Shown here: positions 55,742 through 63,911 of the stretch, one piece after another | Position numbering within the stretch: position 1 is the first letter of the stretch | Layout: each line of letters opens with the position of its first letter | From: Bacteriovoracaceae bacterium | GTDB lineage: Bacteria; Bdellovibrionota; Bacteriovoracia; Bacteriovoracales; Bacteriovoracaceae | Assembly: GCA_048270185.1 (NCBI GenBank) | Contig: JBLWTJ010000003.1 | Span: 288,001 to 352,000 of the forward strand | DNA: 64,000 nucleotides | Direction of reading: 5' to 3' | Notes under the pieces: generated by a model | What the model saw: only the letters and a program-made list of their open reading frames with translations | Database searches by the model: none | Told to the model about the DNA's origin: nothing | Program-made: the position numbers and the translations under genes

Positions 55742-55965
55742 GAGAAGCCTTTTTAATTATAACTACCTAATATTGTAGAACATTTCTTTACTACTTCTCA
55801 AGTCTAAAGCGAGAAATTTCCAAATAATATCCGATAAAATAACTTTACGCGTTGTAAATACTTAACTTTTTTCAAAAAAAGGCGAAAAGGAGAGGGTAAG
55901 ACAGTGAATTATAGGCTCATTTAAATAAATTTAATGAGTATTTTGGGAGCCTATTGGGGAAAAAT

Positions 55966-57549
55966 ATGTCAGCAGAAAAGAAACATGACGAAGAATTGAT
56001 GGCACAAAGTGACAAAATTCAGAGTGCAGTTGATGATGCACTTGGAATTGAAGACAGTGATGCTCAAGAAGCAACATCACTTACACTCGTGGATACCAAT
56101 GTCGATTTCTCTGAACTCAATAGTGAAGCTAGCTCTCCTGAAGATGAAGGGATTGAGCTTAATTTCGATGACGATATGTCAATTGACCTTTGTGGTGAAG
56201 AAGACGAAGTAGTAAATGCACCAGTTGATGCCGAGTCACCTTCTGATCTCGACCTGGATATGTCTGCCAGTATAACAATTAATCTTGCTGAAGATGGAGA
56301 TGAGATTGAAAACTTGTCACAAGATGTTGGAAGTGATGATCTCGACCTCGATAATAATCCAATCATTGTTGAATCTAAAGAAGAATCAGCTGCAGAAGTA
56401 TTAGAAGCATCAGGTGATCTCGATGAGGACTTTGAAGATTTTGACGATCTGGATATGTCTGCTGAACTTGATGATGAACTCGATGATTTAGATGGTGCGC
56501 TCGATGACTTAGGCGATCTTGATGATCTTGATATGTCTGCTGAACTCGATGATGACTTAGGTGATGATCTTGATGTTAGTCTAGATGATGATCTAGGTGA
56601 CGACCTTGATATGAGTCTTGATGATGTTAGTGATGATCTTGACGATATGATAGAAGAAGAAACAGGTGAGGTTGAGGCCGAACTTTTTGCTGAGCCTGCT
56701 GAGCCTGCTGAAGATGATGGGCCAGAAGATACCCTTGCCGCTCTTGATGGTATGGTGGATGAAACACCTGCACCAGCTCCAGTGGAAGAGATGACAATGA
56801 CGGCGGTATCATCAACTGATGAAACAGTATCGATGGATCTTCCTGATGAATTTGTAACACCTGCAGCTTCGGCTACACCTGCTGCTAGCGCTCAAATGAG
56901 TGGGGCCAATATTAACTTTAACCCAGGTCATATTTTATCTTCTTTAAGTGAAGAACAACTTCTCGATTTAAGAGTGACGGTTAATGAGTTAAAAACTGAT
57001 CGTGTTAATTTATTAAATGAAATAAATGAATTAAGAGCAATGGTTGAGATTATCAAAAGAGAGAATCTTAATGTGAAGGCCGAAGCTGATGAAAAGCAAA
57101 TTGAGCTTTCAATTGCACGCAAGCGCCACGCTCTTGAACTAGAAGATACAAAAGCACTACTTGATAATTACAAGCATGGGCTAGAATTAAGTGAAGCAAA
57201 GAATAAGGCGTTAAGAGAAGAGATTGATCAAGTTGCCATTCGTCTAAATCATGGGCATTCAAATACTAGGGCCCGTGAACAAGAACTAGAAAGTCAGTTA
57301 GAATTGATGGCCATTGATTCAGATAATAAGATCAAGGCCCGTGATGAGAAAATCTTAGAACTTAAAAGAAAGATTGATACGCTAGAATTTAATATGGAAA
57401 ATATTTCAATTAATGAGCGTCAAGCACGTAAAGAGAAGAGGCTTGCAGATCAAAAACTTGAACGCTTAGTAAATAATCTACGCGGCTCTTTAAGTGTTGT
57501 GTCAGATACACTAGAATTAGATGACACAGAAATTGATGTGGAGAATTAG
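55966..57549 (+). CDS. Highly acidic disordered protein with C-terminal coiled coil
   Basis: D/E-rich first ~320 aa with DDLDMS repeats; ~180-aa heptad region; no signal peptide; GGGGA SD before ATG 55966. Confidence 0.8.
   Translation: MSAEKKHDEELMAQSDKIQSAVDDALGIEDSDAQEATSLTLVDTNVDFSELNSEASSPEDEGIELNFDDDMSIDLCGEEDEVVNAPVDAESPSDLDLDMSASITINLAEDGDEIENLSQDVGSDDLDLDNNPIIVESKEESAAEVLEASGDLDEDFEDFDDLDMSAELDDELDDLDGALDDLGDLDDLDMSAELDDDLGDDLDVSLDDDLGDDLDMSLDDVSDDLDDMIEEETGEVEAELFAEPAEPAEDDGPEDTLAALDGMVDETPAPAPVEEMTMTAVSSTDETVSMDLPDEFVTPAASATPAASAQMSGANINFNPGHILSSLSEEQLLDLRVTVNELKTDRVNLLNEINELRAMVEIIKRENLNVKAEADEKQIELSIARKRHALELEDTKALLDNYKHGLELSEAKNKALREEIDQVAIRLNHGHSNTRAREQELESQLELMAIDSDNKIKARDEKILELKRKIDTLEFNMENISINERQARKEKRLADQKLERLVNNLRGSLSVVSDTLELDDTEIDVEN
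56415..56650 (+). repeat. Degenerate tandem coding repeats (DDLDMSAELDD / DDDLGDDLD)
   Basis: GATCT(G/T)GATATGTCTGCTGAACT(T/C)GATGATGA occurs twice, plus GATGA(C/T)(T/C)TAGGTGA units. Confidence 0.75.
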
Positions 57550-59603: not shown

Positions 59604-59619
59604 ATCTTCTATTTTGAGC

Positions 59620-59662
59620 AAAAAAAAACGACGTTCCTAAAAAGTCCTTTCCCGAAACGCCG
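59620..59662 (-). terminator. Minus-strand intrinsic terminator with no adjacent minus-strand gene
   Basis: CGGCGUUUC...GGAACGUCG stem with two G:U pairs that form only on the minus strand, followed by U9. Confidence 0.7.
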
Positions 59663-59810
59663 AAGTGTCTTTAATTTTTTGTCTCTGCTTATTAATAAGT
59701 TTAGACGAATTTTCGAATTTCACAAGGACTATTTTCTTACAGTAACTCGCACCCAAGATCATCTTAGTCCATTATTCAAAACGCCCTAATAGAGCTTGTT
59801 TACATGCTCT
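59620..59810 (-). ncRNA. Candidate ~190-nt sRNA
   Basis: TTGATG-N16-CATAAT upstream (59842-59815); hairpins ATAGAGC/GCTCTAT and GGACTA/TAGTCC; own terminator. Confidence 0.35.
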
Positions 59811-59948
59811 ATAAATTATGTTTCTATAGTTTCTAACATCAATATTTTATTGATATATTTTGGTAGGTTTTTTTTGTTTGGCCACAGCTTTAGAGCTGAC
59901 TAATAGAAATATTTTTGATAATAAAAACTTGGCCAGTTTACGACGAAT

Positions 59949-60578
59949 ATGAGGCAAATTATCGTGAAAAAGTATGAATCAATTAGAATATTTAAGAACC
60001 CAATTTTAGAGGCAACGACTCACGTTCATCCTATCGTTCCACTAGTTCTTTGGGCGCCATTTGTTATTTATCTAATTTACATTTCATATACCGAATATTC
60101 TTACTCTCACTCAAAACTTATCGTTTGCGCTGTTAGTGGAATCATTATTTGGACACTAACTGAGTATGTTCTACACCGCTTTGTTTTTCACTTAAAACCA
60201 ATTGGACCTTTAACTGAAAGATTTGTTTTCTTGTTTCATGGCCTTCATCACGATGATCCTAATGATCCGACGAGACTTGTTATGCCACCTGTTCCAGCTA
60301 TTTTAATAATGGCCTTAATTTGGGGATTCTTTGCTCTCTTTATTCCTGAAAATTTTATGACAGGCTTCATGGCCTTCTTTATCGTCGGCTATCTTTGCTA
60401 TGATTATATTCATTATGGAACACACCATTTTAAAATGACAGGCAAAGTGGGGCGCTACCTTAAGAAGTTTCACCTTCAACATCACTTTCGCCATGAGAAG
60501 GCAAAGTACGGCGTAAGCTCTCCATTATGGGACTATGTCTTTCGAACTGTAACAGGAGAAAAAGAAGAAGGTTATTAG
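59949..60578 (+). CDS. Fatty acid hydroxylase / sterol desaturase family (FA2H/Scs7-like)
   Basis: WTLTEYVLHRFVFH, HGLHHDDPNDPTRLVMPP, GYLCYDYIHYGTHH, HLQHH, YGVSSPLWD His boxes. Confidence 0.9.
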   Translation: MRQIIVKKYESIRIFKNPILEATTHVHPIVPLVLWAPFVIYLIYISYTEYSYSHSKLIVCAVSGIIIWTLTEYVLHRFVFHLKPIGPLTERFVFLFHGLHHDDPNDPTRLVMPPVPAILIMALIWGFFALFIPENFMTGFMAFFIVGYLCYDYIHYGTHHFKMTGKVGRYLKKFHLQHHFRHEKAKYGVSSPLWDYVFRTVTGEKEEGY

Positions 60579-61552
60579 AGCCAGTTACGCTCTTGATAAT
60601 CTTTTGCTGTCATCTCAATTGTTGATTCTAGATTGTGGTTTGGAATAAATCCTAATGCTTGGATTTTTCCACTATGACAAAGCCAAGAGTCTTGCTCTAA
60701 CTCGTTAACCTTATCTCCTGTAAGAGGTAAGTGAATCGGCATTGTGTAGAGGATTCCAGCAATGATTCTTAGAATGAAAATAGGAATTCCTAAAAAGATA
60801 ACTTTCTTAACTCCTAAGCTCTTTGAAATCTGATTAATTAATTGCTCAAAGGTAACTTCCTCAATTGAGTTAACAAAGTAAATTTCATTTCTGACATTAC
60901 TTTGGTTAGCACAAAGAATAATAGCATCAACTAAATCATATACATTAACAACACTGTAGCGCTTGTTCTTGGCCTTAATTCCAGGAGCTGTAACAATACG
61001 GCCCTTTACCATTTTAAATACGTCTAAGACGGCCGTATCACGAGGACCGATAACCATTGGAGGTCTGATGATTGAGGTGTCCCAAGACTCTGGTGCAAGC
61101 TCTTGAAGGGCCTGCTCTGCTGCAAGTTTCGAGAAGCCGTAGGCCGAGACAGGATTACTTTCAATCGTCTCATCACATGCTGTGGCCGAAGGTCCGGCAG
61201 CGGCTTGAGAAGAGATAAGAACAAAGTGTAATTTTGATTCATACTTAGTTTTTAAGTGATTGATTAGATCTTGAGTGGCAATTTGATTTGTTTTAGCAAA
61301 AGTCACTGAGTGCTTAGCTGATACAATACCGGCAGTGTGGATAACACAATTAAGATCACTTGGTAGATCCTTAATCCACCTTTTAATTGATGCATCACTG
61401 AGGTCTCCCTGAATATACTCACCTGGAAGGTTTAGTTTTTGTGCTTTGGCCTCACTGCGTACAAGGGAGTAAACCTCGTGTCCTTGCGAATGTAATTTGT
61501 CACAAAGGTGTGAGCCGACAAAACCTGTTGCACCAGTTACTAATACTTTCAT
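60575..61552 (-). CDS. Extended SDR NAD(P)-dependent oxidoreductase; putative ceramide / 3-ketosphinganine reductase
   Basis: VTGATGFVG, ISSQAAAGP, YGFSK; third gene of the spt operon. Confidence 0.75.
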   Translation of the reverse strand: MKVLVTGATGFVGSHLCDKLHSQGHEVYSLVRSEAKAQKLNLPGEYIQGDLSDASIKRWIKDLPSDLNCVIHTAGIVSAKHSVTFAKTNQIATQDLINHLKTKYESKLHFVLISSQAAAGPSATACDETIESNPVSAYGFSKLAAEQALQELAPESWDTSIIRPPMVIGPRDTAVLDVFKMVKGRIVTAPGIKAKNKRYSVVNVYDLVDAIILCANQSNVRNEIYFVNSIEEVTFEQLINQISKSLGVKKVIFLGIPIFILRIIAGILYTMPIHLPLTGDKVNELEQDSWLCHSGKIQALGFIPNHNLESTIEMTAKDYQERNWL

Positions 61553-62679
61553 TAGATCTCTTTTTGAAAAATACGATACTTACGATAAGGAGTTGCATTC
61601 ATTCGAATAAGTGGTTTATTCATATTTAAATTATCTTCTAGAATCCAACTCATTTCTATATTCTTATATTTTGGATATTTTCTAATATTACTCTGGCAAC
61701 GGTAGTAGAGAATTGATTCAAGCCCAAAGAGGCGATACTTCTTCTTAACACCCATTGTGATGACACGAACTGTATTGATCTTTGACTGGTGAGCAAGGAC
61801 TTTAAAAATTCCCGTCGGGAATAGACGTCCATTTGGGATTTTATGAAGAACTTGATTGAAGTCTGGTAGAGCAACAATAAAGCCTGCTTCAACTCCATCC
61901 ACTAGAGCAAAGAGAATAAGCCTTTCATCAGCGACTGTTTTTAAATCTGCTGCCATGGCGTAGAATTCATCTTTAGTCATTGGGACAAAGCCCCAGTTTT
62001 CTTCCCATGCATCATTGTAGATATCATACATGAGCTTAATTTCTCTCTCCCAGTTCTTCTTTGAAACTGTACGATAAGAAATGGCCTGCTTTTTTTCTGC
62101 ACGGGCCGCAATCTTAGTGATAACTTCAGGAAGATCTTGCTTTGTTTCCATATGGTAAGCAAGAAGGTCCATGGCCTTTGCAAAGCCTAGTTCTTCAATA
62201 TATTGCTGATAGTATTCATAGTTATAGATCATCATAAGAACAGGTATTTCTCCATGTCCTTTGATAAGAGTTCCACATTCGTAATTTGTCGAAGGATTAA
62301 AAGGGCCCACAAATTTAGTCATTCCAAGTGACTTACACCACTCAGTTGCAGCATTAAAGAGAGTTTTAAAAACTTCTTTATCATCAATCGCTTCAAAGAA
62401 GCCCCAATGGCCTTCTTGAGTTTTATGGAATTTATTATAGTTTCGATTATTAATGGCCGTAATACGTCCAACATCTTTTCCATCTTTAATGGCAATGTAG
62501 AAAGCACAATCTGCTGTTTGATAGAAAGGGTGTTTATTATTAAAAAGTTTGTTTAATTCCATACGAAGCTGAGGAACCCAGCTTTGATCGTTTTTATAGA
62601 TATTAAATTGAATATCGATAAATCTCTTTCGGGCCTTCTTATCATTTAAAACATCAACTTTTTCGATATAAATGGCCAT
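61552..62679 (-). CDS. Double-GNAT acyltransferase; putative bacterial ceramide synthase
   Basis: YKNDQSWVPQL, HPFY, VGRITA, GFFE, GPFNPSTN, YNDAWEENWGFVP, LPDFNQ, SWILEDN motifs of the YghO/bCerS-like family; directly downstream of spt. Confidence 0.75.
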   Translation of the reverse strand: MAIYIEKVDVLNDKKARKRFIDIQFNIYKNDQSWVPQLRMELNKLFNNKHPFYQTADCAFYIAIKDGKDVGRITAINNRNYNKFHKTQEGHWGFFEAIDDKEVFKTLFNAATEWCKSLGMTKFVGPFNPSTNYECGTLIKGHGEIPVLMMIYNYEYYQQYIEELGFAKAMDLLAYHMETKQDLPEVITKIAARAEKKQAISYRTVSKKNWEREIKLMYDIYNDAWEENWGFVPMTKDEFYAMAADLKTVADERLILFALVDGVEAGFIVALPDFNQVLHKIPNGRLFPTGIFKVLAHQSKINTVRVITMGVKKKYRLFGLESILYYRCQSNIRKYPKYKNIEMSWILEDNLNMNKPLIRMNATPYRKYRIFQKEI

Positions 62680-62702
62680 AAACTTTCCTTTCTTCTAGGC
62701 TC

Positions 62703-63911
62703 CTAGTGAACAATTGTCGAAGGGATATCAAATTCCTTCTTCGCCTTTGCAAATACTTCAAGGACTTTGCTTAATTCGCTCTTATTATGAGTTGCCATAT
62801 AGCTTGTACGAATAAGGGCCTCACCTTTTGGAACTGCTGGAGGTAGTACTGGAGTAGCAAAAACTCCGTTTTCACTTAGAAATTTTGTAATAAGAACAGA
62901 CTTCACATCATCTCCAATAAAGATTGGAATGATCGGTGTCTGAGAATTATATGTATAGAAACCAATTTCTTGGAATCCCTTTCTCATAAATTCAACATTG
63001 TCCCATAATTTAGCGTGTAGCGTGTCGTCTTCTTGAATAACATCAAGACATGCAGATACTGTTGCCACAGCTGATGGTGCCATTGAAGCAGAGAACATAA
63101 AAGATCTTGCTAAGTGCTTTACATAATCAATAGTCTCTTCATCACCAGATAAAACTCCACCGATTGAAGCAAAAGACTTTGAGAAAGTTCCCATATTTAA
63201 ATGAACTTTGTCCGTTAGACCAAAGTGATTCATTGTTCCTGCGCCTTTTTCTCCCATCACACCGATACCATGAGCGTCGTCAACGTAGATATAGGCTCCA
63301 TATTTTTCTGCTAATCTTGTCATCTCTGGAAGATTGGCAATATCTCCAGTCATTGAGAAAACACCATCTGCGACGATGATAACCTTTTGAAAGCGGCTAA
63401 TATTAGCTTCAAGTTGCTCTTCAAGAGATTCCATATCGTTGTGGCGATACTTAAATGTTGTACCCATTGCTAGGCGAGAAGCATCGATAATTGAAGCGTG
63501 GTTTTCTGAGTCAAAGAGCATACAATCTCTTGGGCCACAAATGGCCGAAAGAGCACCTAGGTTTGTCTGCATACCAGTTGAAAAGATGAGGGCCTTTTCA
63601 TGTCCAAGGTAGCGCGCAAGCTTTTCTTCAAGCTCTTCGTGAATTGTCAGGTTACCGTTTAGAAAGCGTGAACCAGTACAACCTGTACCGTATTTTTCAA
63701 TGGCCTTAATAGCCGCTTCTTTGACATGTGGGTGGTGAGTAAGTCCTAAGTAGTTATTAGAACCAATCATGATCTGATCTCGGCCATCAATTTTTACTAC
63801 TGTTCCTTCTGAATCTCCAATCTGGCGAAAGAAAGGGTATAGGTCTTTAGATTTAAGCATTTTTGCTTTATCCATTAAACGCTCGGCGGCAGCAGAAAAT
63901 TTTAGCGACAT
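62703..63911 (-). CDS. spt: PLP-dependent alpha-oxoamine synthase, most likely serine palmitoyltransferase
   Basis: LYPFFR, GSNNYLGL, GTGCTGSRFLNG, NHASIID, DDAH, PLP-lysine motif GTFSKS, FSAS; gene context. Confidence 0.82.
   Translation of the reverse strand: MSLKFSAAAERLMDKAKMLKSKDLYPFFRQIGDSEGTVVKIDGRDQIMIGSNNYLGLTHHPHVKEAAIKAIEKYGTGCTGSRFLNGNLTIHEELEEKLARYLGHEKALIFSTGMQTNLGALSAICGPRDCMLFDSENHASIIDASRLAMGTTFKYRHNDMESLEEQLEANISRFQKVIIVADGVFSMTGDIANLPEMTRLAEKYGAYIYVDDAHGIGVMGEKGAGTMNHFGLTDKVHLNMGTFSKSFASIGGVLSGDEETIDYVKHLARSFMFSASMAPSAVATVSACLDVIQEDDTLHAKLWDNVEFMRKGFQEIGFYTYNSQTPIIPIFIGDDVKSVLITKFLSENGVFATPVLPPAVPKGEALIRTSYMATHNKSELSKVLEVFAKAKKEFDIPSTIVH

Follow-up and report, generated by a model that had tools for sequence, protein, structure and literature searches.

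A predicted ceramide biosynthesis operon with a linked Scs7-type hydroxylase in a Halobacteriovorax-like bacterium

The window analyzed here is a stretch of 64,000 nucleotides (nt) from the genome of a Bacteriovoracaceae bacterium (G000:C3:288001-352000; assembly 95.9% complete). Near its end, three genes on the minus strand encode a serine palmitoyltransferase (SPT; gene spt), a GNAT-family bacterial ceramide synthase (bCerS) and an oxo-ceramide reductase (CerR), and a fourth gene, convergent on them, encodes a membrane hydroxylase of the Scs7/FA2H type. Judged from the sequences, this operon very probably makes the ceramide core. We further propose that the operon and the hydroxylase together yield a 2'-hydroxy-acyl dihydroceramide with a non-phosphonate head group. 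The proposal as a whole is likely, and every reaction in it is inferred from gene anatomy, orthology, fold, conserved linkage and gene absences, all of which were observed directly. An earlier note on the same DNA had described the cluster as complete. The description fits only as far as the ceramide core is concerned, for the cluster has no gene for the head group, the acyl donor, the electron donor or transport. In the following, G numbers denote the genomes compared (G000 is the genome of the window) and L numbers the loci fetched from such genomes.

Gene organization of the cluster

The features of the cluster are as follows.

62703..63911, minus strand: spt, encoding a serine palmitoyltransferase that belongs to the Bacteroidota/deltaproteobacterial subgroup, 402 amino acids (aa)
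61552..62679, minus strand: bcerS, orthologue of the GNAT-family bacterial ceramide synthase, 375 aa
60575..61552, minus strand: cerR, extended SDR, putative orthologue of the oxo-ceramide reductase, 325 aa, with GATGFVG and YGFSK motifs and lacking a hydrophobic signal at its N-terminus
59949..60578, plus strand: gene convergent on cerR for a membrane His-box hydroxylase of the Scs7/FA2H type, 209 aa, lacking a cytochrome b5 domain
60575..60578: stop codons of the SDR and hydroxylase genes, overlapping by 4 nt, the site of a PAP2-family gene in most relatives
59604..59948: intergenic stretch of 345 nt on the 5' side of the hydroxylase gene, the site of a divergent secreted START-fold gene in most relatives

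All four open reading frames are intact at the positions given by the earlier note, and its gene layout, strands and junctions were confirmed on the sequence. The synthase and GNAT genes are spaced by 23 nt as read from the sequence, the GNAT and SDR genes overlap by 1 nt (TAATG), and the SDR and hydroxylase genes overlap tail to tail by 4 nt (60575-60578). A promoter scan returned 15 sites against 13.0 expected and was uninformative. The closest named relatives of the hydroxylase belong to Halobacteriovorax (85-86% identity), and the 90% cluster that contains the synthase has Halobacteriovorax-named members, several of them already labelled serine palmitoyltransferase by NCBI. The genome is thus Halobacteriovorax-like, and a predatory habit of the host is suggested by the genus of these nearest named relatives.

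The serine palmitoyltransferase

The best PDB match of the synthase is the Sphingobacterium-type SPT (3a2b/8guh) with 407 bits, compared with 300 bits for the best BioF/Kbl-type chain and 243 bits for the cysteate acyltransferase 28eh. The PF00155 domain was detected with 196 bits. The GTFSKS motif pointed out by the earlier note is present, and both this motif and NHAS are identical to those of A7BFV8, the SPT of Bacteriovorax stolpii. We take the two motifs to be the pyridoxal phosphate lysine motif and the pyridoxal phosphate-stacking histidine of alpha-oxoamine synthases. The window synthase shares 73% identity with A7BFV8, which is identical letter for letter to the synthase (420 aa) of genome G079 at locus L076, hereafter the B. 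stolpii-matching genome. A7BFV8 is counted among the characterized enzymes in the text available from PMC6148460. In a 30-row IQ-TREE phylogeny the window synthase and A7BFV8 share one 9-row clade with support 100/99. E. coli BioF and Kbl, the two outgroup rows and both on long branches, fall outside this clade.

The best NCBIfam model for the synthase is the Bacteroidota SPT model NF047600 with 516 bits, under its cut-off of 640. This shortfall is uninformative because the catalogued SPT A7BFV8 scores lower still (491 bits, likewise under the cut-off); this lineage is not covered by the cut-off. Taken at face value, the score could speak for an enzyme that accepts another amino acid, such as alanine, glycine or cysteate, or that serves as BioF or Kbl, so that the product would not be an ordinary ceramide; the outgroup of only two long-branched rows and the finding of no second alpha-oxoamine synthase in the genome, which leaves this enzyme as the sole one, can be counted on the same side. 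We regard such an enzyme as very improbable in view of the lower score of A7BFV8 on the same model, the identity of 73% to it, and the distance between the SPT and cysteate acyltransferase scores. Moreover, neither bioB nor tdh was found above cut-off in the genome, and a BioF or Kbl role of the synthase would therefore have no partner. Such a role was rejected on the PDB ranking, the tree and the lack of bioB and tdh.

The ceramide synthase and the reductase

According to PMC9386255, in the part consulted, yghO and ECD_02852 of E. coli BL21 are homologues of Caulobacter CC_1154 and CC_1164. The references used for bCerS and CerR were the E. coli BL21 proteins from the annotated locus, not Caulobacter's own sequences. 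A search of E. coli DNA for yghO with an alphaproteobacterial gene gave no match, and the BL21 locus was taken by coordinates. BL21 YghO has a single match in the genome, which is the window GNAT (36% identity over 381 columns, E 1e-76). The best genome match of the epimerase-like BL21 protein "epi" is the window SDR (27%, E 8e-20), followed by the next paralogue at 3e-12. With this modest margin the SDR is probably the CerR orthologue; the assignment is weaker than that of the GNAT and leans on gene position. The SDR gene lies directly behind the GNAT gene in most loci, and an SDR match at 1e-45 was found in 60 of the 121 family genomes. Taken together, orthology, the SPT tree and linkage support the reading of the three genes as an spt-bcerS-cerR operon.

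The earlier note had further described the GNAT protein as a double GNAT. This description was not borne out, since the protein shows one weak Pfam GNAT stretch (residues 52-124, E 2.4e-4) and an alignment of one half with the other failed (E 0.38), so that no internal repeat was detected. The orthologue in Mucilaginibacter also carries one Pfam GNAT stretch, at 217-348. No solved structure matching the GNAT protein was found. A hydrophobic N-terminus was predicted in none of 37 SDR orthologues by a simple hydropathy rule applied to these orthologues. Caulobacter CerR is reported to be periplasmic in the accessible part of PMC11087976, where the order of the pathway steps is described as still debated.

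Different arrangements were observed elsewhere in the family. The loci L071-L074 (genomes G086, G100, G014 and G091) carry a second, distinct SPT clade with a zinc-dependent dehydrogenase gene between spt and the GNAT gene; no SDR was found in these loci as fetched, and the dehydrogenase is a possible alternative reductase. The genes after the cluster in L071 and L072 presumably encode sulfate-activation enzymes, judged by their sequences. In G056, G094, G052, G081 and G042, spt and cerR are adjacent and no close GNAT orthologue is present.

The hydroxylase

PF04116 (75 bits) is the only Pfam match of the hydroxylase, with no match to PF00487, and the genome contains no second PF04116 gene. 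The four His boxes (H76/H81, H97/H100/H101, H155/H159/H160 and H175/H178/H179) align with those of yeast Scs7, in agreement with the FA2H/Scs7-like enzyme proposed by the earlier note, and ten histidines are invariant over 16 aligned homologues. In a PDB sequence comparison without Sur2 and ERG3 references, the one significant match was yeast Scs7 (E 4e-27). When the AlphaFold model (pLDDT 83) was searched with Foldseek, only the Scs7 chains 4zr0/4zr1 passed (TM 0.79, 35% identity), the next match having an E value of 0.4. No cytochrome b5 domain was found in the 209 residues, and a PF00173 search of the genome was also empty. Given this architecture without cytochrome b5, the enzyme is not an FA2H of the fungal or animal type. 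As given in the portion of PMC10002949 available, animal and fungal FA2H/Scs7 proteins have a cytochrome b5 domain at the N-terminus, and plant members do not. The same source, with reference to Ring 2009, notes that myxobacterial 2-hydroxylases resemble FA2H (the title of the cited paper connects them with the formation of sphingolipids) and that the stereochemistry of 2-hydroxylases varies among myxobacteria.

The earlier note had left open whether the hydroxylase acts on the acyl chain or on the base. PF04116 spans both activities (source labels read "sterol desaturase/sphingolipid hydroxylase"), this is the sole PF04116 gene of the genome, and the match to Scs7 was obtained with no Sur2 sequence or structure alongside, all of which would suit a Sur2- or DES-like enzyme that hydroxylates C4 of the sphingoid base or desaturates it. 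A base-modifying role is nevertheless improbable, with Scs7 alone significant by both sequence and fold and with the Mucilaginibacter orthologues labelled "4-hydroxysphinganine ceramide fatty acyl 2-hydroxylase" by JGI. Moreover, a distinct DES-type gene occurs in G079 (G079:C1:1089699-1090598), G019 and G003, unlinked in these three genomes, as well as in the loci L058 and L071, suggesting a division of labour. Since the separate DES-type gene of G079 fits base modification better, base hydroxylation by the Scs7-type enzyme is less likely, and 2-hydroxylation of the acyl chain is favoured. No DES-type gene was found in G000 or G077 with the query used.

In L058 (9301-10266, plus strand) and L071 (3852-4889, minus strand), the DES-type desaturase/hydroxylase gene directly adjoins the hydroxylase gene; the Lipid_DES domain was checked on L058. 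In the alphaproteobacterial loci L165, L166 and L170, a distant PF04116-like gene with about 25% identity to the window hydroxylase directly adjoins a bCerS homologue.

Linkage and co-occurrence in the family

Co-occurrence was determined in 121 genomes of the family, each of which was searched with each gene; related genomes are not independent and no p-value is given. The synthase was counted at 500 bits or more (68 of the 72 genomes with a match), the GNAT at 300 bits or more (63 of 79) and the hydroxylase at 120 bits or more (58 of 74). Synthase and GNAT genes are less than 500 nt apart in 58 of the 63 genomes having both, and this arrangement is therefore not due to chance. The hydroxylase gene is located no more than 8 kb from the GNAT gene in 42 of the 53 genomes with spt, GNAT and hydroxylase genes, convergently in 41; in the remaining 11 it is on another contig (eight genomes) or far off on the same contig (three). 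Synteny across Bacteriovoracaceae, to which the earlier note had pointed as a check, is thus retained, and the B. stolpii-matching genome is among those with the hydroxylase beside the operon.

Several observations weigh against a joint role of the operon and the hydroxylase as proposed here. The hydroxylase gene is on the opposite strand and is thus not co-transcribed with the operon. No hydroxylase orthologue was found in 15 of the 68 spt-bearing family genomes, and the genome of the window has four genes of the PF00487 desaturase family, the family that hydroxylates ceramide in Caulobacter. The SDR was matched to CerR at just 27% identity, and the reference was the homologue from E. coli instead of CerR from Caulobacter. 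Upstream of the operon, a PilZ-like gene (34 of 63 loci) and a gene which we take from its motifs to be aminopeptidase-like (33 of 63) are conserved as well; with such unrelated-looking neighbours retained, synteny alone is therefore no proof of shared function. In Bacteroidota, the GNAT was found in 29 of 38 hydroxylase-bearing genomes against 108 of 151 genomes overall, which is no enrichment, and the hydroxylase gene is within 10 kb of the GNAT gene in two of the 29, with distances read by eye.

According to a second interpretation, the operon makes ceramide and the hydroxylase acts on some other lipid, such as an amide-linked lipid, lipid A or fatty acids destined for alpha-oxidation, and merely sits in a conserved block. 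Besides the opposite strand and the conserved neighbours without a lipid role, it could draw on the nine of 38 Bacteroidota hydroxylase genomes without a GNAT match at 1e-60, on the three family genomes that have the hydroxylase and no spt match (G004, G021 and G072), and on Bacillus homologues with 32-36% identity. We consider it unlikely, because 55 of the 58 hydroxylase orthologues come from genomes in which spt was matched at all (72 genomes), and because the gene stays at the locus while the neighbouring PAP2 and START genes vary: six separate lineages without these two genes keep the hydroxylase there, by our own count on a FastTree GNAT tree. The hydroxylase also recurs beside DES genes and in a distinct sphingolipid cluster of Mucilaginibacter, and ceramide is stated to fit the Scs7 site in the part of PMC10002949 seen. 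This Mucilaginibacter cluster (L100-L103) contains spt, GNAT, SDR, inositol-phosphate synthase, DUF5686, CDP-alcohol transferase, Scs7-type hydroxylase (41% identity to that of the window) and PAP2_3 genes, and from its gene content appears to be a complete pathway for 2-hydroxy inositol-phosphoceramide. Action of the window hydroxylase on the acyl chain of ceramide is thus the preferred reading.

PAP2 and START genes of the relatives

Among 41 loci chosen for diversity, 31 have both GNAT and hydroxylase genes. The hydroxylase gene is flanked by a PAP2 gene and a START-fold gene in 22 of these and by neither in seven. The PAP2 gene encodes 261-270 aa and occupies the site of the overlap in L088, L046, L091 and L076. 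The genus-level relatives L064 and L088 possess both genes and have the same outer neighbours as the window, with a flanking metallophosphoesterase gene. The window lineage is nested among relatives bearing PAP2 and START genes in the GNAT tree. No remnant of either gene was found in the window, where nothing scored better than E 0.035, and no START match was found anywhere in G000. Since the two genes are present in most relatives, the lineage is nested and no remnant is left, the 4-nt overlap is derived: the window lineage lost the PAP2 and START genes, and the overlap of the stop codons came about later. The overlap as a sign of tight coupling was rejected, because it follows from the PAP2 loss and because a gap of 1-6 nt takes its place in close relatives.

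The START genes (L088:8230-8916, L076:6329-7165 and L046:7420-8109, all on the minus strand) have no Pfam match. By Foldseek the best match of the protein is a bacterial START protein (E 2e-10), and the START domain of CERT is among the top ten rows. A hydrophobic N-terminus was observed in 26 of 28 START-fold proteins. START orthologues were matched in 56 genomes, and 46 of the 47 strong ones (at least 160 bits) are in spt-bearing genomes. In G056 and G094, which have no hydroxylase, the START gene is directly behind cerR. The PAP2 protein (L088:9609-10394 and L076:7714-8514, both on the plus strand) has a hydrophobic N-terminus and ends in an aromatic residue, and its gene is coupled to the hydroxylase; it is a candidate head-group transferase or phosphatase.

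One tentative possibility is that the genes of the window are the reduced core of a sphingolipid locus of Bacteriovoracaceae with six genes (spt, bcerS, cerR, PAP2, hydroxylase and START), in which the START protein of the relatives, as a bacterial counterpart of CERT, might carry ceramide across the periplasm and the secreted PAP2 protein might add or remove a head group. Note that this concerns genes of the relatives and not of the window. START folds bind many lipids, the related genomes are not independent and the window lineage does without both genes, which all count against the carrier function. How sphingolipids are carried through the periplasm, and by which components, is stated to be unknown in the part of a recent preprint available, which adds that taxa may differ (bioRxiv 10.64898/2026.04.12.717747).

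The head group

The lipids of B. stolpii contain 2-hydroxy fatty acids, and in some of them the base is hydroxylated as well. The earlier note had linked the cluster to the sphingophosphonolipids of that species. This link stands for the ceramide core and the acyl hydroxyl of the B. stolpii lipid, and it is not supported for the product of the present host. Phosphoenolpyruvate (PEP) mutase was not found in G000 nor in any of its three genus mates. By the same search it was found above cut-off in 17 of the 121 family genomes, including G079 (404 bits), and was not above cut-off in 54 of the 68 spt-bearing ones. Six proteins of the B. stolpii phosphonate cluster gave only two weak matches in G000 (E 7e-6 and 4e-4). 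Because no phosphonate head-group genes were found in G000, the host should not make the sphingophosphonolipid of B. stolpii. G000 and the B. stolpii-matching genome have the ceramide core and hydroxylase genes in common, genes could be missing from an assembly of this completeness, and aminoethylphosphonate could conceivably come from the prey. Production of such lipids by the host is still most improbable, given the result in all three genus mates, the two weak matches and the many spt-bearing genomes without PEP mutase.

The phosphonate cluster of G079 is a separate locus (L136:2414-14498, from G079:C1:3241000-3260000), and similar clusters are found in L137-L145. It encodes a PEP mutase fusion, a phosphonopyruvate decarboxylase, nucleotidyltransferases, a CDP-alcohol transferase and a TauD-family dioxygenase, with a transaminase nearby, and fits a 1-hydroxy-aminoethylphosphonate head group. 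The TauD-family dioxygenase is present in nine of ten phosphonate loci; its best NCBIfam match in G079 is the phosphonate dioxygenase TmpA, with 45 bits, far under the cut-off. It is a candidate enzyme for the 1-hydroxylation of the head group in B. stolpii. PMC8942020, as far as its text was available, already links the phosphonate cluster of B. stolpii to its lipid.

Proposed pathway

In the pathway proposed for the window, Spt would condense L-serine with a long acyl-CoA or acyl-acyl carrier protein (ACP) to give 3-oxo-sphinganine. bCerS would then attach the N-acyl chain, and CerR would reduce the 3-oxo group to yield dihydroceramide. This order of steps is borrowed from Caulobacter, where it is debated. 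The hydroxylase, as a di-metal His-box monooxygenase of the Scs7/FA2H type, would use O2 to place a hydroxyl group on C2 of the fatty acid that is amide-linked in the ceramide. Its electron donor would be external, possibly ferredoxin or flavodoxin, no cytochrome b5 having been found. The resulting 2'-hydroxy-acyl dihydroceramide would probably be placed in the outer membrane.

A further gene cluster of the same genome is located outside the window (L181:6498-19071, G000:C3:266497-279070). It encodes a fatty acyl-AMP ligase, an ACP, an AurF-like diiron enzyme, an HMG-CoA-reductase/kinase fusion, a UbiA-like protein, a DUF3419 protein, a PEP-utilizing enzyme and a second AMP-binding enzyme. Of all proteins of the genome, the ligase matches E. 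coli AasR best (32%). This AasR-like ligase and the ACP were considered as acyl donor of Spt, but their neighbours point to another pathway.

Elsewhere in the window, a gene at 55954-57549 (plus strand) encodes a protein of 531 aa that contains a long, acidic stretch of low complexity made of repeated DDLDMS-like words and has a coiled-coil-like end. It has no Pfam match and lies upstream of a GGDEF gene and a metallophosphoesterase gene.

Comparison with known systems

Testable genes can now be named for the synthesis of ceramide and 2-hydroxy-ceramide across a predatory family, and they are tied to the one species of the family for which an SPT is catalogued and an unusual sphingolipid is known. 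The common ceramide core is separated from the rarer phosphonate head group, from which we predict that the sphingolipids of most marine Halobacteriovorax-like predators differ in kind from those of B. stolpii. New findings are most likely to come from the START and PAP2 genes present in the relatives. No published description of the cluster or its hydroxylase in Bacteriovoracaceae was found, most subscription papers being out of reach.

The operon has the same three enzyme families as Spt, bCerS and CerR of Caulobacter crescentus (CC_1162, CC_1154 and CC_1164), as described in the accessible parts of PMC11087976, PMC9386255 and PMC11324152. Unlike in Caulobacter, the window genes form one compact three-gene operon without acpR, aasR and lptF2/G2, and their Spt belongs to the Bacteroidota/deltaproteobacterial subgroup. 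The acyl-chain hydroxyl of Caulobacter is made by the DesA-family enzyme CC_0202, whose gene is unlinked, and alters polymyxin sensitivity (PMC11324152, same part); the linked Scs7-type enzyme of the window would represent a second solution for acyl hydroxylation of ceramide.

The B. stolpii-matching genome G079 has the same operon and convergent hydroxylase as the window (identity 53% for the GNAT, 44% for the SDR and 64% for the hydroxylase). It differs in having PAP2 and START genes at the locus and a DES-type gene and the phosphonate cluster elsewhere, none of which was found in G000. The hydroxylase resembles yeast Scs7 and mammalian FA2H in its four His boxes and membrane helical fold (TM 0.79 to 4zr0/4zr1), and differs from them in having no cytochrome b5 domain. 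To the myxobacterial FA2H-like hydroxylases it can be likened by the description in the part of PMC10002949 available. The inositol-sphingolipid clusters of Bacteroidota (PMC9246714, seen in part; the word "desaturase" is absent from its main text) are represented here by Mucilaginibacter L100-L103, which share spt, GNAT, SDR and hydroxylase genes with the window locus, whereas the latter has no inositol or head-group genes. The pathway itself is thus known, and FA2H-like hydroxylases tied to sphingolipids have already been reported from myxobacteria; the cluster adds a further lineage to a known kind of pathway and is no new system.

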